Translations under genes and position numbers: made by a program
The notes under the pieces: model-generated
What the model saw: only the letters and a program-made list of their open reading frames with translations
Told to the model about the DNA's origin: nothing
The model's database searches: none
Source of the DNA: an uncultured Candidatus Binatia bacterium
GTDB lineage: Bacteria > Desulfobacterota > Binatia > Bin18
Length of the DNA stretch: 64,000 nucleotides
NCBI GenBank assembly: GCA_965200965.1
Contig: OZ241744.1
Location: forward strand, 64,001 to 128,000
Reading direction: 5' to 3'
Shown here: positions 15,857 through 25,136 of the stretch, in pieces
Position numbering within the stretch: the stretch's first letter is position 1
Layout: the number at the start of each line of letters is the position of its first letter

Positions 15857-16480
15857 TCACGCCTGTGCCTGCACAAACTCTACCGCGGCCTGGGCCGCGG
15901 CCCTCTCCTGTCCCCAGAAAAAATGGTCAACCCCGGCCAGTGTCACCAGCTTTTTGGGATCAGGCATCTTCTCGACCAGCTGTTGCAGTTCGGGGATGGG
16001 CGAGAAGGTGTCCGTATCTCCGCTGATGAGCAGCGTCGGCTTGTTGGCCGTCAGCAGAAACGACGGGTCCCGAAAGCCGACCGGCAGGGCCACGCCAATC
16101 AGCACACCCACCCGCTCATCCTCAGCCCCGGCGCGCAGCCCGACGAGAGAGCCGAATGAATACCCGGCGACAACGACCCTGGACACCGGCTGGCGGGTGA
16201 GCAGGGCGGTGACCGCGGCTTTGACATCTTCAACCTCAGCCTCGCCCTCGCCGTGGCTGCCCCCGCTGTGGCCCACCCCGCGAAAATTGAAGCGCAGGGT
16301 GGCAAGTCCGGTCTCCTGAAACGCCAGGGTCAGGGCCGACACCACAGTGTTGCGCATCTCGCCGCCGTACTGTGGGTGGGGATGACAGATCACCGCGCCG
16401 ATGGACGGGGCGGTGGGCGGCGATGAAAACAGTCCTTCGAGGCTGATATCTCCAACCGGAAACGTCATCTGTTCTTCCAC
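15857..16480 (-). CDS. Alpha/beta hydrolase
   Basis: CHPHPQYGG, RFNFRGVG, GYSFG nucleophile elbow, DHFF. Confidence 0.9.
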   Translation of the reverse strand: MEEQMTFPVGDISLEGLFSSPPTAPSIGAVICHPHPQYGGEMRNTVVSALTLAFQETGLATLRFNFRGVGHSGGSHGEGEAEVEDVKAAVTALLTRQPVSRVVVAGYSFGSLVGLRAGAEDERVGVLIGVALPVGFRDPSFLLTANKPTLLISGDTDTFSPIPELQQLVEKMPDPKKLVTLAGVDHFFWGQERAAAQAAVEFVQAQA

Positions 16481-16586
16481 GGCTTCTCCTGTTCATAGAC
16501 CCTGGTGTAGCACGCTCCGCGGCCGGCTGAAAGGACGGGTGCGCTTGTCAGCCGGGGTGTGTTGGCCTAGTCTGCACGCTGCTGCC

Positions 16587-17153
16587 ATGTCACATCCGCT
16601 GCGCCATACCCCCGAGTCCGTCCGATTCCTGGCCGACCGCACGGTCGGCAAGCTGGCCCGCTGGCTGCGCATCCTGGGCTATGACACCCTGTATTGGCCG
16701 CAGCTGACGCCGGTCGGCCTGCTGGCCGAGGGCCGCCGCCAGGGACGGGTGATCCTGAGCCGCAACACCCGCATTCTGCAAGGACGGAGCGTCTCGCCCT
16801 CCTCTCGGTCTGATGAGACGCGCCGGCCTTGGGTCAAAGACGCGCCGGCCTGTGTCTTCATCCGGCCCGCTCATTTCCGCCAGCAACTCAAGCAGGTGGT
16901 TGAAACGCTTGGGCTTGAGGTGACAAGCGCTGTGCTGAACCGCTGTGTGGCGTGCAATCAGGTCCTCCAGGCGGTCTCCAAGGCCGAGGTCGAGGCCCGG
17001 GTGCCGGCCTATGTGTGGCGCACCCAGTCGGCCTTTCGGCGCTGCCCCGGGTGTGGGCGTATCTACTGGCCGGCCAGCCACCGGGATCATATTCTGGCCG
17101 AGCTTGAGCGGCTGGGCTTGGCCGCGGCGACCGAAACGCGAGCGGAAAACTGA
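16587..17153 (+). CDS. Mut7-C RNase domain protein (DUF82-like) carrying an in-frame palindromic insertion
   Basis: FLADRTVGKLARWLRILGYDT, RCVACN, CPGCGRIYWPASH. Confidence 0.85.
   Translation: MSHPLRHTPESVRFLADRTVGKLARWLRILGYDTLYWPQLTPVGLLAEGRRQGRVILSRNTRILQGRSVSPSSRSDETRRPWVKDAPACVFIRPAHFRQQLKQVVETLGLEVTSAVLNRCVACNQVLQAVSKAEVEARVPAYVWRTQSAFRRCPGCGRIYWPASHRDHILAELERLGLAAATETRAEN
16780..16830. repeat. Palindromic element of about 51 bp inserted in frame; inverted copy at 17257-17310
   Basis: aaggacggagcgtctcgccctcctctcggtctgatgagacgcgccggcctt is nearly the reverse complement of 17258-17308. Confidence 0.85.
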
Positions 17154-17590
17154 TGGCTGATCGCTGGGCCGGCTACTGGTTGTTGTGGGATGGGGGGTGA
17201 GGCTTCTGCCGCGGCTTTGTCGCTTGGGTCAAGCGACACGACCGGGCCGGTGTCATCGAGGACGGCGCGTCTCATCAGACCGAGAGGAAGGCGAGACGCG
17301 CCGTCCTTCGGGCTGTGGCCTGGCAGGACGCCCCCCGGCCGCCTGTGACGGATGAGTTGGCGCAGCGCTGTCGGCAGGCCCTCCATGTGATTACGCCGGC
17401 CGGCGAGACCTTGGCCGCCGGCCGGGCCAGTCTGTGTGTGCTGGGGCTGATCGGCTATCCGCGCTTGGCCCGTCTGGCCGGGCTACCGCCCTTCATCTGG
17501 GCGGTTGAGGCCGGCTACTGGCTTGTGGCCCGCAACCGGCGGTGGCTGAGCCGGGTGCTGTATGGCAAAAGCCAGCCCTGCCAATACTGA
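17153..17590 (+). CDS. DCC-family (DUF393) thiol-disulfide oxidoreductase, probable selenoprotein (Sec at codon 16)
   Basis: ATG 17153 reads MADRWAGYWLLWDGG-[TGA 17198-17200]-GFCRGFVAW and continues in frame into ORF 17315..17590 (GYWLVARNRRWLS). The TGA occupies the first Cys of the DGxCxxC motif. Confidence 0.75.
17208..17247 (+). promoter_or_regulatory. Candidate bacterial SECIS hairpin
   Basis: Perfect 9-bp stem TGTCGCTTG (17218-17226) / CAAGCGACA (17230-17238) with a GGT loop 26 nt after the UGA; a lower GC stem is possible. Confidence 0.65.
17507..17554. repeat. DCC 3'-end segment repeated at 19060-19097 (38 nt identical) and 20089-20132 (44 nt, 2 mismatches)
   Basis: tggcttgtggcccgcaaccgg(c/a)ggtggctgag is seen three times in direct orientation. 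Confidence 0.92.
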
Positions 17591-17652
17591 TGCGCGTCCT
17601 TAAAAGGCGTGATCGTGTCGCCTTCCCCTTGACCAGATGACACATTCACGCC

Positions 17653-17949
17653 TCAGTGCGACGGCGAGAGGGAGCGGGCGAGGCGTTCGGGAGAGAGGGC
17701 TTTTTCCAAGGGTCGCATGATCTGGCGTTCGACGGCCTGCCCGATATATGCGCTGCACGCCAGCCCCACAAGCCGCTGATATTGTTCGTGGGATATCTCC
17801 CCGCTGTCGCGGAACCTAGTCATTTTCCGGAGAAAAGCCCCGACATCTCTTGTGCTCAGTGAGCGGGGCTGGGGTGACTGTCCGGCTCTGGGACGCGGCA
17901 GGCGGTACGGCCGTAGGCGGGGAGCGTATGGCTTTGTAGCGTGTTTCAT
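17653..17949 (-). CDS. Hypothetical 98-aa protein, near-identical paralog of 20640-20939
   Basis: MKHATKPYAPRLRPYRLPR...FRDSGEISHEQYQRLVGLACSAYI; conserved open frame in both copies. Confidence 0.6.
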   Translation of the reverse strand: MKHATKPYAPRLRPYRLPRPRAGQSPQPRSLSTRDVGAFLRKMTRFRDSGEISHEQYQRLVGLACSAYIGQAVERQIMRPLEKALSPERLARSLSPSH

Positions 17950-18041
17950 GGCTGTTCCGTCGGTCAATCGCGTGTTGTCTCCACCTTTGTCGCTGGTGTA
18001 GAGGAGCGGGGCGAGGGCCTGTGACACACCGCGTCGAGACC

Positions 18042-18425
18042 TTATGCAAGAGGCTGGGGTAACAAAACCGGCCTGGAGTGTTCGGCCAACTCCGCTTGCC
18101 AATCAAGGATGTCATCGCTCGGCCAGCCGGTAATGTTTGCGTGTCCAGGAGGGGTGTTGTCATACTCGACGCTCAGACCGCCAGGTCTCTCTGGGACAGC
18201 GTGTGTCGCAAGAATAGCCCACCCGTGCAATTTCTTTCCTCTGTCGCGCGCAACGGTTACGCCGCACTCTTCTGTGCGTTCATGCGGCCATGTATTGGTC
18301 CGAAACACGGAGACCTTGCCTTGGTGGGGTTGAAAGAGTTTGGCTTTCACGCCGGTCGCAGGCATCTTGTTCTTTTCCACGACAAATCGGGTCAGGGGTG
18401 GGCTGTCCTGGAGGCGTCCCATCAC
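18042..18425 (-). CDS. Hypothetical protein (possible toxin-like enzyme of a two-gene module)
   Basis: 127-aa ORF abutting the upstream gene; LTRF..VSVFR..GHANITGWP pattern. Confidence 0.6.
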   Translation of the reverse strand: MMGRLQDSPPLTRFVVEKNKMPATGVKAKLFQPHQGKVSVFRTNTWPHERTEECGVTVARDRGKKLHGWAILATHAVPERPGGLSVEYDNTPPGHANITGWPSDDILDWQAELAEHSRPVLLPQPLA

Positions 18426-18893
18426 CTACCTGTCCTTTTCCTGTATCTGCGCCAATTTGGTAAAGCAGGGATCAATCAAATCTGCAATCTGATCCTCCCA
18501 AGCCCCAAGGTTTTTTGAGCGCGCCGTTCCATAAGTGCAGACATAGGCAACTGTTCCGTCCGGGTCAACCGTGAGCAGCAGCCGCCCATCTTTTTCAAGC
18601 ATCCATTCAAAATATACCCCTCCCTTTTCGGTCGCGCTCACGTCCGGGGCAGGAAGAGCAAAACAGTCTGCCGGGAACTGGTCAATCAGTTGGTGCGCAT
18701 ACTCTACCGCTTCGGGCGCGGCTGCTCCGTCAAACTCTGCTCCAATCTCCCCTTCCAAAAGTGCCCGGACCTCCCCCTCTTGGCGTTCTCTCTCCCTCTG
18801 TTCTTCCTCACCAGAGGAGAAAAATCTACTCACAGGCCGCATAGGAAGAGACCCTGGACAGGGTTCTTCCTCGGACATTTTGGATTCACTCAT
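18426..18893 (-). CDS. Hypothetical acidic protein (partner of 18042-18425)
   Basis: GAGG RBS; PDVSATEKGGVYFEW...LLLTVDPDGTVAY; lower GC than core genes. Confidence 0.6.
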   Translation of the reverse strand: MSESKMSEEEPCPGSLPMRPVSRFFSSGEEEQRERERQEGEVRALLEGEIGAEFDGAAAPEAVEYAHQLIDQFPADCFALPAPDVSATEKGGVYFEWMLEKDGRLLLTVDPDGTVAYVCTYGTARSKNLGAWEDQIADLIDPCFTKLAQIQEKDR

Positions 18894-18977
18894 GCTCAGG
18901 CCCTCTTCAGTTTGTGCGGTTTTATAGCCTGTTATGATGATCACACCGTAATGGCGCAATCCTACAAACTCTTTCTA

Positions 18978-19097
18978 CTGATGCCGACCCGCTGTCAACC
19001 CCCCCGTGGGGAAGCGGCAGGGGGGTGTCGGATGACGCTGTGCTACCCCGACCTGCGCGACTGGCTTGTGGCCCGCAACCGGCGGTGGCTGAGCCGG
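18978..19097. repeat. Inter-cassette spacer repeat (minus-strand TTGACA, GC hairpin, REP-like palindrome, DCC 3' copy); second copy at 19990-20132
   Basis: ctgatgc..accc.(c/t)tgtcaacccc..gtggg.aagcggcagggg is shared. Palindrome gcgtatcggatca/tgatccgatacgc at 20034-20067 has a degenerate counterpart at 19026-19057. Confidence 0.85.
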
Positions 19098-19139
19098 TTC
19101 GTAGCGGGGGCAGGAGAGCGGGGCGGGTGAGGGCAGGAC

Positions 19140-19712
19140 TTACTTTGCTTTTTCCAAATCGGCGTAGGTCATAATTTTGTGATCTTGAACATCGAAGAAG
19201 TGGGCGAGCCAGCGCTGATAAAAACGAATATGGGCAAACTGACTTCTATCGTAATCCATAGCGCGTAGTAATTCGTTGTGGCACATCATATCAAGGACCC
19301 GATGGACTGGCGGTTCATCCGCCTCGATCCCAAGACGGTGCGCTCGAAACTTGGTGAGGGAGTGCATATCTCTCGGTTTTTCGGCCATTTCCATCTGCTG
19401 CTCAAGTTCGATAAATCGACGACACAAATCATCGTGGAGGCGGGCCGCAGGACCAGTCCCGACAACAAGGTCAATGGTGAAAAAGACAGTCACCAAGGCC
19501 GCGGCCAGGGAAGGGTAAAGCGTGCCCACATCGTTCAGCAGGGTAACGACCGTTGCCGAGCCAAAGATAACACCTAGCGCACTGGTGACTTGGCGGAAGC
19601 GGTCAAAGAACATCCGCCGCCGGGCGTGATAGCGAATGGACCGCCGAACGCCGAAAAGCAGGGCGTGCCACTCAGTATCGGGTTGATTTTGTGTTACGGT
19701 GTGGCCACTCAT
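19140..19712 (-). CDS. Two-TM membrane protein, SLATT-like
   Basis: RRSIRYHARRRMFFDRF, two TM helices, then ARLHDDLCRRFIELE; family assignment by recall only. Confidence 0.6.
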   Translation of the reverse strand: MSGHTVTQNQPDTEWHALLFGVRRSIRYHARRRMFFDRFRQVTSALGVIFGSATVVTLLNDVGTLYPSLAAALVTVFFTIDLVVGTGPAARLHDDLCRRFIELEQQMEMAEKPRDMHSLTKFRAHRLGIEADEPPVHRVLDMMCHNELLRAMDYDRSQFAHIRFYQRWLAHFFDVQDHKIMTYADLEKAK

Positions 19713-19754
19713 GACACTCTTCCCACATGTAGGATTGAAAAATTGACTTCCTGG

Positions 19755-19946
19755 TTAGTTGCTGTCGTCACCGTCGTCTTTCGGGGGTGGAGGTGGGAGG
19801 GTATCGCGTATTGTTTCTGTACGAGGCTTGTTGCTGTGACGAAATTCCTCGTCAATTCTTTCTCTGGGGCGGTCCTCGAGGGTTTTCTCTTTTTCTGCCT
19901 CTCTTTCTTTGAGGCGGTCCTCGAGGGTTTTCTCTTTTTCTGCCAT
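19755..19946 (-). CDS. Small charged Pro-tailed protein with a duplicated AEKEKTLEDR
   Basis: AAGGA RBS; internal direct repeat; ends LPPPPPKDDGDDSN. Confidence 0.55.
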   Translation of the reverse strand: MAEKEKTLEDRLKEREAEKEKTLEDRPRERIDEEFRHSNKPRTETIRDTLPPPPPKDDGDDSN

Positions 19947-20140
19947 TCGCTTTTCCTTTCTACGGGTTATCTTGAGCATATCTTACTCGCTGATGCAAAC
20001 CCGTTGTCAACCCCTGTGGGAAAGCGGCAGGGGGCGTATCGGATCAGCGTAGCGTGATCCGATACGCACGACTAGCCTGTCTGGCCGGGAGGCCGGCTAT
20101 TGGCTTGTGGCCCGCAACCGGAGGTGGCTGAGGGCAAAAG

Positions 20141-20575
20141 CTAGCCCCGCCAATGCCGGACGCCGTAGCCGGCCCCAAAGCCGCCAGCAAAAGCAGCAAG
20201 CACTTGGACAATCTGTTTATAGAGTTCTTTGTCAGCCGGTGCCAAGTAGAATGTCAACAGGCCGAACGAGAGAAGCACAATCAGGATGTAGACCAGCCTG
20301 TAGCGCCGGTCGGCCTTGGAGTACTCGAATGATCGCTCATCGTTCCTGCCGTCGTTCTCGATGAGTGTAGTGATATGGTCTTCGGTGAGCTTTTCGAGTA
20401 CGGGATTACGGGCGGGACCAATTGTTCCTGCAATAACTTGCTCAAATTGCTCTTCTATGACCTGTCGAGAAGCTGGGACAGAAGCCTCTTCTTGTCCGGG
20501 AGATTCTTGCTGCTCGCCCTCTGGGGTTGGTTTCGTGAGCGAACTATCAGGGCTGTCCGTGGGCTTGTCAGCCAC
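20141..20575 (-). CDS. Hypothetical membrane protein (DUF2335-like layout)
   Basis: Acidic disordered N-terminus, two C-terminal TM helices ending GGFGAGYG. Confidence 0.6.
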   Translation of the reverse strand: MADKPTDSPDSSLTKPTPEGEQQESPGQEEASVPASRQVIEEQFEQVIAGTIGPARNPVLEKLTEDHITTLIENDGRNDERSFEYSKADRRYRLVYILIVLLSFGLLTFYLAPADKELYKQIVQVLAAFAGGFGAGYGVRHWRG

Positions 20576-20639
20576 CGCTGGGCGTCCTTAAGAGGCGTGA
20601 CCGTGTCGCCTTCCCATCAGCCAGATAACCATTCACGCC

Positions 20640-20939
20640 TCAGTGTGACGGCGAGAGGGAGCGGGCGAGGCGTTCGGGGGAGAGAGCTTTTTCCAAGGGT
20701 CGCATGATCTGGCGTTCGACGGCCTGCTCGATATATGCGCTACACGCCAGCCCCACAAGCCGCTGATATTGTTCGTGGGATATCTCCCCGCTGTCGCGGA
20801 ACTTGGTCATTTTCCGGAGAAAAACCCCGACATCTCTTGTGCTCAGTGAGCGGGGTTGGGGTGACTGTTCCGCTCCGGTACGCGGCAGGCGGTACGGCCG
20901 TAGGCGGGGAGCGTATGGCTTTATGGCAGTCTGTTTCAT
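20640..20939 (-). CDS. Hypothetical 99-aa protein, paralog of 17653-17949
   Basis: DNA at 20582-20941 is near-identical to 17594-17951. Confidence 0.6.
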   Translation of the reverse strand: MKQTAIKPYAPRLRPYRLPRTGAEQSPQPRSLSTRDVGVFLRKMTKFRDSGEISHEQYQRLVGLACSAYIEQAVERQIMRPLEKALSPERLARSLSPSH

Positions 20940-20947
20940 GGGTGTCC

Positions 20948-21223
20948 TCAGGCTGTGCGCGGCGCGGTGCGGCTGATCACGCGGCTCTCACGTTCCTGAA
21001 ACCGTGTGCGTAAATCCCGGCGCAGGCCGTAGAGCGGAATGCCGCCCGGGGTGAGGGGCGACCGGATAAACAGGTCCTGATGTGCCTGGATGTAGGTCTG
21101 GACTTGCTCCGGGGAGAGGCCGGTCTGTCTGGCGATGCCCCCCGGAGTGCGCCACAGGGAGCGGGGGCCACAAAAGGCATTCACCAGCTTCGCCCCAATG
21201 GGATCAGTAAACAGTTCATTCAT
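20948..21223 (-). CDS. Hypothetical small protein, HTH-like
   Basis: AGGAGG RBS; WRTPGGIARQTGLSPEQVQTYI resembles a helix-turn-helix. Confidence 0.55.
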   Translation of the reverse strand: MNELFTDPIGAKLVNAFCGPRSLWRTPGGIARQTGLSPEQVQTYIQAHQDLFIRSPLTPGGIPLYGLRRDLRTRFQERESRVISRTAPRTA

Positions 21224-21567
21224 GGTGACTCCTCCTGTTGAGAAAGGCACTCGGGTTTAACCCGCGTGGTGATGATGTCCGCGAGCGCATCCTGAAACCC
21301 GTCGCTGTTGATAAACTCCTTGAGAGGCGTCACGTCTTCGTACAGATTGCGGGGCCGCCAAACCGTAATCCCTGCAACGACGAGGATCACGATCAGGAAC
21401 ACGATTATCATCAGTACAACTACATAAAATTGGTGGTCCGCACTGAGTTGAGAATTGATGACGACTAAGCCGATAATGCCTTCAATAACCAGCAAGCCCA
21501 CGGTGAAAAAGATCAGTGGATTGCGGACCTGAGTGAGCAACTTGGCTGGATTCTGTCCCACCGTCAT
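21220..21567 (-). CDS. Hypothetical two-TM membrane protein
   Basis: RNPLIFF, two hydrophobic helices, WRPRNLY; coupled to the next gene. Confidence 0.6.
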   Translation of the reverse strand: MTVGQNPAKLLTQVRNPLIFFTVGLLVIEGIIGLVVINSQLSADHQFYVVVLMIIVFLIVILVVAGITVWRPRNLYEDVTPLKEFINSDGFQDALADIITTRVKPECLSQQEESP

Positions 21568-21778
21568 TTACGGTTGTCCCGTCGGTCAATCTCGCGTTGT
21601 CTCCCCCTTTGTCCCGTTCATTCTACTCCCCCCGCGTCGCAGGGTCAGCAGTTTTCCCCATGAAATATTCTTATCGGCTAGCATCAGCGCGTCTTATCAA
21701 AGCGGGCACTACGGGGAATGCGGGGACTTGGGGGAGGGGCGAAGGTCAGGGGAATCCCGGAATCATATGAGTCGGGGT

Positions 21779-24667
21779 TCAGACCCGGCCTTTGCCACCA
21801 TGTACGGAGGGTTCGGCGCACCATTTGGCGGCCAAGCGACGCACGGCCTTCCAGGTGGCTTCGGTGAAGCCGAGCAGGTCGCGGACGACACCGCGGTCGA
21901 GCCGGGCGCGGTTGGGGTCGGCCGCGGCCAAGTGGGCCGGCAGCAATACTGTGGTGCGGAACTCGTCGAAGATGGCCCGGGCGGTAGCAAGCTGGGCGGG
22001 GCTGAGGGCGCGGAAGTCAAGGACAGGCAGGGTTTCGGCGGAGCGGATGGTGAGCCGGGCCTTGCTGGATTGCTGGCGGCTCGAGTGCCACCAGTACGAT
22101 AGGAGGCCCAGGGTGCTGTTGCTCCACACGGCGAAGGCGTAATCGAATGTTCCATCGTCAAAAATGACGTTGGGCCACACCGTCCCGCCTATTGATGCGT
22201 GATCGGTGAAGGCGACTGCGAGGGGTTGAGAGCCAAATGTGTACTCCAGGTTAAGATGAACGCGGCTGGCGGTTGCCCATACCTCGGCGGCTTTGGTTTC
22301 CATGCCTATCCGAACCTGCAAGGCCGAGTCAGGGGCGCACACCATCCGCGTTTCTTTTTTGGCAGCGTGGTTCCACAGGGCGGGGTAGGTGGCGGTCGGG
22401 CTGGCCGCGGCCTTGGTGAACGGCCCACGCGGGGGCGGGCCGATGATGTCACGATGGACGAGGCCGAGCCTGCCTACCACGCCTAGGGGAGCGGTTTTCA
22501 GCTCAAGGGCGGCGGTGGCCGGCAGCCACAGTTGGGAGCGGGTCAGGGCGTAGGCGGTTTGGGCCAGGGCAGCATCCAGCAGCCGGACTGTGCCCCACGG
22601 TGCGCCGTTGGTGGGGCACGGGGCGGTCAGCGTCTCGCCGGCCAGTTCATCCCCGACGGTCAGGCGTGTGCCGCCGTAGGGGCCGTCTTCAATGTGCCGG
22701 ATGTTGTCGGCCGTGGCGATGCTTCTGGCCAGTTCGGCGGCCTGGGCAAAGCCCTGCGGGCGGTGGGTCAAGGAGACGAAACGGGCCGCCTGTAGGGCGT
22801 CGTCCGACTTGGCGTCACGGCGTTTGCGGGCAATGACCAGGCATTCGGCCATGCCCGTGTCTGAGGAGAAGGACATCTCCATGCCGGAGGCGGCAATGCT
22901 CAACACGGTCAGGTCTGTATATTTTTGGGCGAGCATATGCCGGAAGCCCTGCCAGGACAGGCCGGCGGCCGCGGACAGGGGCAGGACCAGGGCCAGCACG
23001 CCGCCGGGCTTGAGCTTGGCGTGGGCCAAGCCGGCAAAGGCCGAGGCAATGCCTGCGTTGCCGTGATAGCAACTGTGCTTGCCAAAGGTGTTGATGCGGG
23101 CTCCCATCGCGGTCTGGTCGGCCCGCGTGGCGTCAAACGCGGCAAAAGCCGGGTTGGTCACGTCGGCGTGTGCGCCCTCGTGGTTGGTGGCGCGGGTGAA
23201 AGGCGGGTTCATAATCACCAAGTCAAAACCCTCGTCTGGAATATCGGCCAGAATGTGGGTGGCGGTTTCTTCGCCAAGGCTGCCGGTGCGCTTGGCCGGA
23301 TCGCTGGTGTTGAGGAGTACCAATTGCCGGGTGGAGTGCAGCAGTTCCAGTGAGCCGATCTTCACGCTGGCGTCTGGCTGGCGGCCGTAGGCCAGGGTGT
23401 AGAGGCGCGAGCTGCCAAAGCTGGCTTGGGGCTGGACGCCGGACAGGGTGGAGCCGGTGATGTGGATGGCTGAGGGCATCACGTCGCAGCCGTACAGGAC
23501 TTCTTCCATCATGACCGGATGGAGGTCGGCCGGGTTGCCGCCGGTGCGCTCGTGGCGGCTGGCGATCTGCTCGTAGACCGCGGACAGCAGCGCGCCGGTG
23601 CCGCAGGCAAAGTCGGCGATGCGCAGCCGGCCAATGGCCGCGGGGTCGGCCCAGTCCAGGCCGCGGAGCTTGGCCACAGCCAAGCGGGCCAGCAGGGCCG
23701 CGGAGGCCGGCAGGGTGTAGAAGGTGGCCAGGTATTTGCGGTCGGCAATCAGACGCTGGAAGATGCGCCCGGTCAGGTCATGGGCGTTGGTGGCACCGGT
23801 GGAGGCGACGCCTTCGGCGGTGTGTCGCAGGGCGTGCAGGAGGGGGGCGGCGGTGGCCGGTGGCAGTTGGGCCACGATATCGCGGGCAATCGCAAAGATG
23901 GGCCAGTAGTTGATGTCCAGGATGGCGGTCCAGGCGGTCAGGATTTCATCCTGGGGGTTGGTGACAGCTTGGCCACAGACGAGGTGCAGGGGCTTGACCT
24001 CGGGGTACATACCGGCCAGCCGCTCGTGGAAGATCAGGGCGTTGGCAAGAATGGCGCAGGCCATGCGGCGGGTCTGGGCCACATCGGCCATGCCCAGCAG
24101 CCGGGCGATATGGGGGGCAATGGCCGGGCGTTGCTCGGCCATGTCGTGCAGGATGCTCACGCCGGCGTCAATGCCGTCCTCGAGGGCGCTGGCCGCGGCG
24201 TCTACGGCGTGCTGGGGGATGGACACGAGGCGGATCAGGTCGGCCAGATCGGCAACTGAGCCGGTCAGCCAGCCGGCGGCGGGAAAGCGCTGTGTATCCT
24301 GCTTATTCTGGCTGAAGACGCACCAGGACAGCGTGGCCCCGGCTATGGCCGCTTGCAGATCGTCGGCGGAAGCCAGGGTTTGCGGGTAGCGCAGGGCGAT
24401 AGCGGCCTCAATGGGGGTGGATTCGTGCACGACCGGCAAACCGAGACGGCTCGCAGCCTCGGCCTCGACGCTGCGGGCCGGGAAGTATTCGGCTTCAAGT
24501 GCGACCGGGGCGCGGTCCGGGGCGGTGATGGCGATGTCGAGTTGCAGCCCGGCATGGCCGGCGACAAGCCGGGTGTGCTCGGCCCGGACCTGGCAGCCGG
24601 ACATCATGCCGTTCAGCAGCCCGGCCAGGGCGGTGTTGGCGCTTGGTTCGGTCTGGTGGCCGCTCAT
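21779..24667 (-). CDS. Type IIG-like restriction-modification enzyme (N6-adenine methyltransferase with putative N-terminal nuclease)
   Basis: Motif I ADFACGTGALL, motif IV IMNPPF, TFYTLP; N-terminal LDIAI...LEAE resembles a PD-(D/E)xK site. Confidence 0.8.
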   Translation of the reverse strand: MSGHQTEPSANTALAGLLNGMMSGCQVRAEHTRLVAGHAGLQLDIAITAPDRAPVALEAEYFPARSVEAEAASRLGLPVVHESTPIEAAIALRYPQTLASADDLQAAIAGATLSWCVFSQNKQDTQRFPAAGWLTGSVADLADLIRLVSIPQHAVDAAASALEDGIDAGVSILHDMAEQRPAIAPHIARLLGMADVAQTRRMACAILANALIFHERLAGMYPEVKPLHLVCGQAVTNPQDEILTAWTAILDINYWPIFAIARDIVAQLPPATAAPLLHALRHTAEGVASTGATNAHDLTGRIFQRLIADRKYLATFYTLPASAALLARLAVAKLRGLDWADPAAIGRLRIADFACGTGALLSAVYEQIASRHERTGGNPADLHPVMMEEVLYGCDVMPSAIHITGSTLSGVQPQASFGSSRLYTLAYGRQPDASVKIGSLELLHSTRQLVLLNTSDPAKRTGSLGEETATHILADIPDEGFDLVIMNPPFTRATNHEGAHADVTNPAFAAFDATRADQTAMGARINTFGKHSCYHGNAGIASAFAGLAHAKLKPGGVLALVLPLSAAAGLSWQGFRHMLAQKYTDLTVLSIAASGMEMSFSSDTGMAECLVIARKRRDAKSDDALQAARFVSLTHRPQGFAQAAELARSIATADNIRHIEDGPYGGTRLTVGDELAGETLTAPCPTNGAPWGTVRLLDAALAQTAYALTRSQLWLPATAALELKTAPLGVVGRLGLVHRDIIGPPPRGPFTKAAASPTATYPALWNHAAKKETRMVCAPDSALQVRIGMETKAAEVWATASRVHLNLEYTFGSQPLAVAFTDHASIGGTVWPNVIFDDGTFDYAFAVWSNSTLGLLSYWWHSSRQQSSKARLTIRSAETLPVLDFRALSPAQLATARAIFDEFRTTVLLPAHLAAADPNRARLDRGVVRDLLGFTEATWKAVRRLAAKWCAEPSVHGGKGRV

Positions 24668-24683
24668 GCGTTCTTCCTCCTGC

Positions 24684-25136
24684 CTAGACCTGGCCCAACT
24701 GGCGCAGGGCCTCGTATAGCACGATGGCCGCGGCGTTGGACAGGTTCAGGCTGCGGACGTGTTGGCCCGGCATGGGGATGGTGTACAGGGACTCGGCTAA
24801 CTCGGCCCGGATAGAGGCTGGCAGGCCGCGCGTTTCACTGCCAAACACCAGCAGATCGTCGGGCCGATAGCAGACCTGGGTGTAGGACTCAGTGGCCCGG
24901 GCCGAGAAGGCCAGCAGCCGCCCGACGGGCCGCCGGCGGAGAAATTCGCCCCAATCCGCATAGGTCTGCACAGCGACATGCGGCCAGTAGTCCAGGCCGG
25001 CCCGCTTGAGATAGCGGTCTTCAAGGGAGAAGCCGAGGGGACCGACGAGGTGAAAGGCGGTGTGTGTGGCCGCGCACAGCCGGGCGGTGGTGCCGCTGTT
25101 GGGCGGAATCTCGGGCGCAACAAAGACGATGTGCAT
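24684..25136 (-). CDS. trmL: tRNA (cytidine/uridine-34-2'-O)-methyltransferase, SpoU family
   Basis: PEIPPNSG, LKRAGLDYW, FGSETRGLP, RSLNLSN. Confidence 0.92.
   Translation of the reverse strand: MHIVFVAPEIPPNSGTTARLCAATHTAFHLVGPLGFSLEDRYLKRAGLDYWPHVAVQTYADWGEFLRRRPVGRLLAFSARATESYTQVCYRPDDLLVFGSETRGLPASIRAELAESLYTIPMPGQHVRSLNLSNAAAIVLYEALRQLGQV

Follow-up and report, generated by a model that had tools for sequence, protein, structure and literature searches.

A short gene in the window, by which we mean the whole 64,000-nucleotide stretch analysed (positions 64,001 to 128,000 of contig OZ241744.1, from an uncultured Candidatus Binatia bacterium), very likely encodes a selenocysteine-containing (UxxC) thiol-disulfide oxidoreductase of predicted thioredoxin-like fold, in which UGA at codon 16 would be read as selenocysteine (Sec). 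We put the probability of this reading at about 0.9. Recoding of UGA16 is inferred from established bacterial Sec decoding. The initial annotation had proposed a Sec-containing DCC protein, and the conservation of the UGA and of a hairpin downstream of it, together with the Sec machinery of the host, lends this proposal support; each of the three outcomes that the annotation had named as refuting was looked for, and none turned up. The gene has the following features.

17153..17590, + strand: DCC1-like (PF04134) gene of 145 codons, predicted UxxC selenoprotein
17198..17200, + strand: in-frame TGA at codon 16, the first Cys of DxxCxxC, predicted Sec (homolog alignment, four sequencing runs)
17207..17209, + strand: Cys19 (TGC), predicted resolving Cys; TGA at this codon in 33/52 TGA-bearing homologs
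17218..17238, + strand: predicted bacterial SECIS with a 9-bp stem and GGU loop (folding, conservation, RNAalifold)
17369..17371, + strand: Cys73, third Cys kept in the subfamily, invariant in 64/64 aligned rows

Reading frame and host machinery

One frame holds the ATG at 17153, the TGA at 17198-17200, the TGC at 17207-17209 and the terminal TGA at 17588-17590. Re-translation bore out the earlier claim that this frame is intact up to 17590 with the TGA at 17198 as its sole interruption; read-through gives WDGG*GFC, and no other stop precedes the gene end. The read-through product matches the PF04134 profile over 111/113 positions (39 bits against a curated cut-off of 27.8, E 2.1e-9), in agreement with the DCC/DUF393 assignment made at the outset. 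Its motif, D13-G-G-U16-G-F-C19, is DxxCxxC with U at the first Cys, and the TGA aligns with that Cys in homologs, as expected from the original placing of WDGG-U-GFC at the redox motif. The second motif position is TGC, so the window gene is UxxC and not UxxU. The UxxC reading first given therefore holds for this gene, but it missed the UxxU form that is commoner among relatives; likewise, the reading frame was described correctly, whereas a 51-nt in-frame element at residues 36-52 was overlooked.

Contigs of four sequencing runs, drawn from three studies, agree in every base of the TGA at 17198; the records of two of the runs compared at the DCC gene describe sponge metagenomes, and none of the runs listed as carrying the sequence is an RNA run. 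In the hairpin stem, the inner eight pairs are invariant across the four runs, one of which has a synonymous change in the outermost pair. Strain variation in the gene amounts to 15 positions: 10 changes are synonymous, 4 are missense and one creates a stop five codons short of the end; a second variant at 17450 is not included. In strain X11, codon 141 is a stop; in the alignment this codon is beyond the C-terminal end of several relatives. Measured over the 93 codons after the motif, insertion excluded, dN/dS is 0.10-0.23 against eight TGA-bearing relatives; downstream of the UGA the gene is under purifying selection.

Profile matches above the cut-offs were obtained in the host genome (G000) for selA (582 bits), selB (366) and selD (396), the last with an in-frame TGA of its own. 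A tRNA-Sec gene (selC) with a UCA anticodon adjoins selA, so that selA, selB, selC and selD are all present in the host. The tRNA has an 8-bp acceptor stem, a 6-bp D stem, a long arm and a G before CCA, which we take to be the canonical tRNA-Sec form. TGA terminates 587 of 1,141 long coding-like open reading frames in the host and is therefore not reassigned. The SelD gene (G000:C1 3226676-3227602, + strand, short hairpin after the TGA) is itself a likely selenoprotein gene, as are a SelW-like CxxU gene (G000:C1 near 900029, + strand) and two peroxiredoxin-like TxxU genes (G000:C1 near 2709458 and 3312891, + strand), each with a short downstream hairpin; in the SelW-like and both peroxiredoxin genes, motif searches place the TGA at the expected Cys.

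The same codon might instead be recoded to Cys, in a SECIS-dependent manner, by tRNA-ReC (SelC*), so that the product would be CxxC or a mixture. Such tRNAs are reported for roughly 56% of the genomes that encode UxxU hydrogenases, 5/5 Armatimonadota among them (PMC13582414), and Armatimonadota also host UxxU DCC genes. Against this, G000 has one tRNA-Sec-like gene (72 bits), the other matches being ordinary Ser, Leu, Cys and other tRNAs. The architecture of this sole tRNA-Sec is the canonical one, and an extra high-scoring copy is absent from the seven other genomes of the genus; the search used the Rfam tRNA-Sec model on 150 candidates per genome (150/678 in G000), within the genus. Recoding to Cys thus appears very unlikely, and Sec is the preferred reading of UGA16.

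The predicted SECIS and the Sec and Cys forms of relatives

The hairpin is formed by nine perfect pairs between arms 17218-17226 and 17230-17238 around a GGT loop (17227-17229). The 9-bp stem and GGU loop of the first description are confirmed; the 26 nt quoted there separate the UGA from the loop, whereas the stem begins 17 nt after the UGA. According to section 5 of PMC13188914, the bSECIS model has a loop of 3-9 nt with a G within the first two positions, a stem of 4-16 bp, a spacing of 16-37 nt and an MFE of at most -7.5. The hairpin lies within the limits given there (3-nt loop, 9 bp, 26 nt and -20.3 kcal/mol for a 51-nt piece). Folding z-scores were -2.32 for a 63-nt piece and -0.93, -1.32 and -0.14 for three other pieces, and 1,340 of the 113,132 TGA triplets in the genome (1.2%) are followed by a stem of at least nine pairs with a G loop in range. 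The DCC locus sequence gave no Rfam match at gathering score. By itself the hairpin is modest evidence; it rises above chance because it is conserved among TGA forms. A genome-wide scan for TGA, motif and hairpin returned 1,455 candidates, mostly spurious, and was kept for the background rate alone.

With the register held fixed, 46/48 TGA genes (15/16 UxxC and 31/32 UxxU) retain at least 7 of 8 pairs, against 6/84 close and 0/15 distant Cys genes, the stem having decayed in most Cys forms. Among 49 aligned TGA genes, 95.7% of 392 cells are paired and 23 two-sided changes are seen, with 0/500 shuffles as high; slid-register controls are 15-42% paired, and RNAalifold recovers the same helix unaided. 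Two-sided change is confined to three of the eight stem pairs, a number reached in 52/500 shuffles. The U-A to C-G swap at columns 27-35 accounts for only one change on the tree and the swap at columns 23-39 for five, and there are only three independent Sec/Cys contrasts on well-supported branches (sign test p 0.25). The stem covariation is partly inherited. The swaps alter the encoded peptide (AWVKR vs AWVRR), and the rare Arg codon CGA stands in the 3' strand in 38/49 TGA forms vs 6/48 Cys forms with Arg there. These comparisons point to selection on the hairpin in TGA forms.

It also speaks against the Sec reading that the six close Cys forms retain the stem and that some TGA forms look decayed: L103 keeps only 4/8 stem pairs, L033 (a sister copy, in G004) is frameshifted downstream of the TGA, and in L181 a TAG follows the UGA at a distance of nine codons. 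The latter two are possible pseudogenes or assembly errors; L181 was left out of the stem counts and the tree, and L033 out of the tree. The sole UxxU gene with a GUG loop (L144:3019-3072) encodes the peptide AWCRR and has all eight pairs.

TGA, rather than TGC or TGT, stands at the first Cys in 8/8 genomes of the genus and in two more of the family, and in 6 of those 10 genomes at both motif positions. We pooled 228 loci from collection scans of genomes and metagenomes (the best 80 of 91 and the best 80 of 144 loci) and from family, phylum-wide and further searches, which reduced to 156 distinct genes: 104 CxxC, 33 UxxU and 19 UxxC, proportions that are not a census, one of the three search patterns having demanded a Cys codon. 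TGA is thus at the first Cys in 52 of the 156, and neither a CxxU form nor a TAA or TAG within the motif occurs among them; L201, cut by a contig start with its TGA visible, was left out of this count. By record title, the hosts of TGA forms belong to Binatia, Methylomirabilota/Rokubacteria, Myxococcota, Armatimonadota, Acidobacteriota and, in one record, Cyanobacteria, a spread of about five or six phyla on titles that are not fully reliable (L074 and L075 bear other names yet equal family members G021 and G025). A PF04134 search of 301 genomes of the phylum gave 24 matches, of which the window gene alone has a TGA; the Sec form is therefore confined to one subfamily among those searched.

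This distribution bears on whether the TGA arose by nonsense mutation or by a sequencing mistake, with the gene a pseudogene or the product a shorter protein from a downstream start. Among the 150 best database representatives (protein records), about 39 by eye count begin after the motif, and the motif is missing in 41, as such a reading would have it. It is nevertheless effectively refuted: in 52 distinct genes TGA coincides exactly with one or both catalytic Cys codons, where TAA and TAG never occur, 48 of the 52 have an in-frame start upstream of the UGA, and the identical calls in four runs from three studies and the dN/dS values given above also stand against it.

All 10 TGA-form hosts of the family have selA, as do 53/55 family genomes overall and 14/16 TGA-form hosts outside the family; selB was found in 5/5 TGA-form hosts tested, one of the two without selA included. 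Hosts of Cys forms have selA in 25/30 cases, or 24/29 without the unpublished genome G408 (included, as L134, in the Cys counts and the tree; no main claim depends on it alone), and therefore selA co-occurrence alone fails to separate Sec from Cys forms. The Cys forms concerned, mostly in selA genomes, are at loci L101-L146 in hosts G386-G415. Cys forms of the DCC subfamily may descend from Sec forms.

The hairpin register of the window gene recurs in 31/33 UxxU genes, where the first UGA precedes the loop by 26 nt and the second by 17 nt, spacings that both fall within 16-37 nt. Up to 100 nt downstream, no other register that could provide a second hairpin for the second UGA was found in more than two of the 33. 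In these relatives a single hairpin would serve both UGAs, as has been proposed for one downstream SECIS and both UGAs of UXXU hydrogenases (PMC13582414). A rapidly computed tree of 157 proteins (119 columns, with numerous unresolved forks and unrooted as to the direction between UxxU and UxxC) places all TGA forms in one group of 142 rows (SH-aLRT 95, among the rows listed). The window gene and that of its relative G007 form a UxxC pair within a clade whose other five members are UxxU (support 97), and the minimum number of changes on the tree is at least 11 for Sec vs Cys and 8 for UxxU vs UxxC. On this unrooted tree, the simplest reading is that the window gene would be a reversion from UxxU. 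We consider it an even proposition that the subfamily is an old, multi-phylum UxxU diselenide family whose two UGAs are decoded through a single 8-9-bp SECIS, that it has repeatedly slid to UxxC or CxxC and never to CxxU, and that the window gene is half-reverted. If true, this would provide a natural allelic series on a short gene for decoding of two codons by one SECIS, and the same series would probe the advantage of a diselenide over a selenenyl-sulfide or a disulfide.

The palindromic insertion and the gene neighbourhood

The DCC gene and the gene upstream of it each contain a copy of a short element.

16587..17153, + strand: Mut7-C RNase-domain gene upstream of the DCC gene (PF01927, E 3.2e-35)
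17258..17308, + strand: 51-nt palindromic element, in frame, 17 codons (residues 36-52), missing from relatives
16780..16830, - strand: second 51-nt element copy, in frame within the Mut7-C gene (net 51-nt gap vs G007)

The insertion in the DCC gene is missing from G007 and from all other aligned relatives, and is carried by all four runs. The element is a near-perfect palindrome found at about 90 loci in the host genome and at none in the reversed-genome control; 38 further copies are in long coding-like open frames, of which some may precede the true start. Pattern matches number 20 in G000, 5 in G007 and 0 in six further genomes of the genus. Comparison with G007 over two regions revealed 12 element-like gaps, nine of them of net 51 nt and the others of 36, 42 and 60, and no obvious target duplication at the element is seen in the alignments. 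Like the Rickettsia palindromic elements, which are about 150 nt long and insert in frame into genes (PMC10969869), and like MITEs, it is a dispersed palindrome inserting in frame; unlike the Rickettsia elements as described there, its unit is 51 nt, and it lacks an obvious target duplication. Tandem in-frame repeat expansions of 21, 33 and 54 nt relative to G007 were seen elsewhere in the genome (L281, G000:C1 about 2381900-2382350).

The subfamily could be a true selenoprotein family whose window copy lost some or all of its function through the 17-residue insertion. This insertion, recent and lineage-specific, lies 19 nt beyond the SECIS stem and folds into a hairpin of its own (-35.6 kcal/mol), and the X11 stop at codon 141 and the frameshifted sister copy in G004 fit such a loss. 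In contrast, the frame is preserved, the insert is modelled as a low-confidence loop between two strands with the core intact, strain changes are mostly synonymous, codon 141 is past the ends of several relatives, and every run carries the insertion. In folding, SECIS pair probabilities are 0.96-1.0 whether the insertion is present or removed, and neither the hairpin nor the protein fold is predicted to be disturbed by it. We therefore think impairment unlikely and favour an intact selenoprotein gene in which the insertion is likely a recent passenger, tolerated in a modelled surface loop.

The start of the DCC gene overlaps the Mut7-C stop in a TGATG at 17151-17155, the overlap first noted; translational coupling of the two genes is likely. 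No sigma-70 promoter or terminator consensus was found in 16300-17900. Binatia-like loci share Mut7-C, a SpoU methylase, DUF1285 and a D-Tyr-tRNA deacylase, and M16 peptidase or glyoxalase-like genes adjoin the DCC gene in other lineages. Neighbourhood clustering revealed lineage-level synteny only and no functional operon, and the gene neighbours, which vary between phyla, give no substrate hint.

Just after the DCC gene lies a repeated stretch (17604-17654) that many contigs in all four runs match alone; text resembling it recurs near 20640-20940, and this is likely to be a further dispersed repeat. In relatives a SpoU-type methylase gene is close behind the DCC gene; in the window the two are parted by about 7 kb of unrelated genes (17590-24684), including a 962-residue methyltransferase-like ORF at 21779-24667, and this stretch looks like an inserted island. 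An alpha/beta-hydrolase-like ORF at 15857-16480 is on the - strand by translation, though the ORF list gave +.

Predicted fold, chemistry and relation to known selenoproteins

Predicted models of the window and G007 proteins (mean pLDDT 80.5 and 79.7) have a strand-helix order that agrees with a thioredoxin-like fold, with U16 directly before a helix (17-28) as in thioredoxin-type active sites and a helical C-terminal third. In VIA-align, the top matches of the G007 model were GST N-domains and thioredoxins (Z 7.5 down to 4.4); the best had Z 7.5, rmsd 2.5 and 71 aligned residues, and Z under 8 can reflect a common arrangement. Foldseek returned no match to the G007 model with E under 0.001 (best E 0.32), and no solved structure matched the DCC protein by sequence.

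In the proposed mechanism, SelB loaded with Sec-tRNA would bind the GGU loop 26 nt downstream and insert Sec at codon 16; without Sec insertion, translation would end after 15 residues. Sec16, at the start of helix 1 and in the selenolate form, would attack an oxidised thiol or the disulfide of a protein, Cys19 would resolve the bond to give a selenenyl-sulfide, and a cellular reductant, possibly acting via Cys73, would recycle it. A strongly hydrophobic segment is absent (the highest mean over 19 residues is 1.25), and the protein carries a net charge of +10; this basic character and the moderate hydrophobicity of the C-terminal helices suggest a place at the membrane surface. We tentatively suggest, at slightly less than even odds, that it may act as a cytoplasmic protein disulfide reductase at the membrane surface.

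U16, C19, C73 and a nearby His might alternatively bind a metal or an Fe-S cluster rather than cycle disulfides. Cys73 is kept in 135/144 subfamily proteins and a His is found at the next strand in 103/144, which would suit a binding site; however, that His is often replaced by Gln or Tyr, the predicted fold resembles thioredoxin and GST domains, and a review credits Arabidopsis DCC1 with the reduction of CA2 in complex I (PMC7598583). Metal binding is accordingly improbable in our view, and we retain disulfide exchange as the proposed chemistry. A DCC1-like domain fused to an HTTM membrane domain has been described (10.64898/2026.08.19.745780). Our fusion search found two long proteins, P0123 and a 499-residue match, P0248. 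P0123, a single record, joins a DCC piece beginning after the motif to a membrane domain with weak MauE/DoxX scores; it could be a truncated Sec-form fusion and a substrate lead.

The gene resembles DCC1-like oxidoreductases (PF04134, the former DUF393, 'YuxK' and Arabidopsis DCC1) in its profile match and in the position of DxxCxxC, and Cys homologs at 45-73% identity are named DCC1-like, DUF393 or YuxK. It differs from known DCC1-like proteins in the UGA at the first Cys (at both in most TGA-bearing relatives), in an in-gene SECIS that fixes the downstream peptide as AWVKR/AWVRR, and in the conserved third Cys. As in the UxxC selenoproteins Trx, Grx, DsbA-like, DsbG-like and SaoT described in PMC13188914, Sec would occupy the N-terminal position of CxxC, with a coding-region SECIS whose G-first loop is 16-37 nt downstream and a predicted Trx-like fold; unlike these, DCC belongs to a different Pfam family.

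SelL is reportedly a UxxU selenoprotein. Table 1 of PMC13188914 lists as UxxU families a Prx-like thiol:disulfide oxidoreductase (PF00578), the metal-binding NF041115 and FmdB-family TIGR02605, and DCC relatives with two UGAs three codons apart are like such UxxU selenoproteins, although the protein families are unrelated. Group 4 [NiFeSe] hydrogenases also include UxxU forms but are mostly CXXU (27/47, PMC13582414), whereas DCC Sec forms are mostly UxxU (33/52) and never CxxU.

The initial annotation had doubted that DCC is a listed selenoprotein family, rightly so as far as Table 1 of the 2026 catalogue (PMC13188914) goes: its 119 prokaryotic selenoprotein families include no entry for DCC, DUF393 or PF04134. 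None of 20 members matched an NCBIfam model at E 0.01, none of 272 retrieved database proteins contains a U or X residue, and the open literature yielded no paper linking selenoprotein or selenocysteine to DCC/DUF393. The DCC term is likewise absent from the accessible portions of the deep-Sep supplements (PMC12013277) and the GOS paper (PMC2398784). The DCC selenoprotein family is thus new with respect to Table 1 of PMC13188914 and NCBIfam, and the family list of BSepDB (PMC13326102) could bear on this novelty. The decoding mechanism and motif types are already known; family membership is the new part.

On this reading, the bacterial selenoproteome gains a family outside the catalogue and profile library compared, one that gene callers appear to truncate. 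We know of almost no biochemistry for the DCC family, and selenium at the first Cys would single this residue out as the likely attacker. The series of UxxU, UxxC and CxxC forms under one hairpin, in a 120-residue protein, would test whether one SECIS decodes two UGAs, and also what a diselenide active site is good for.
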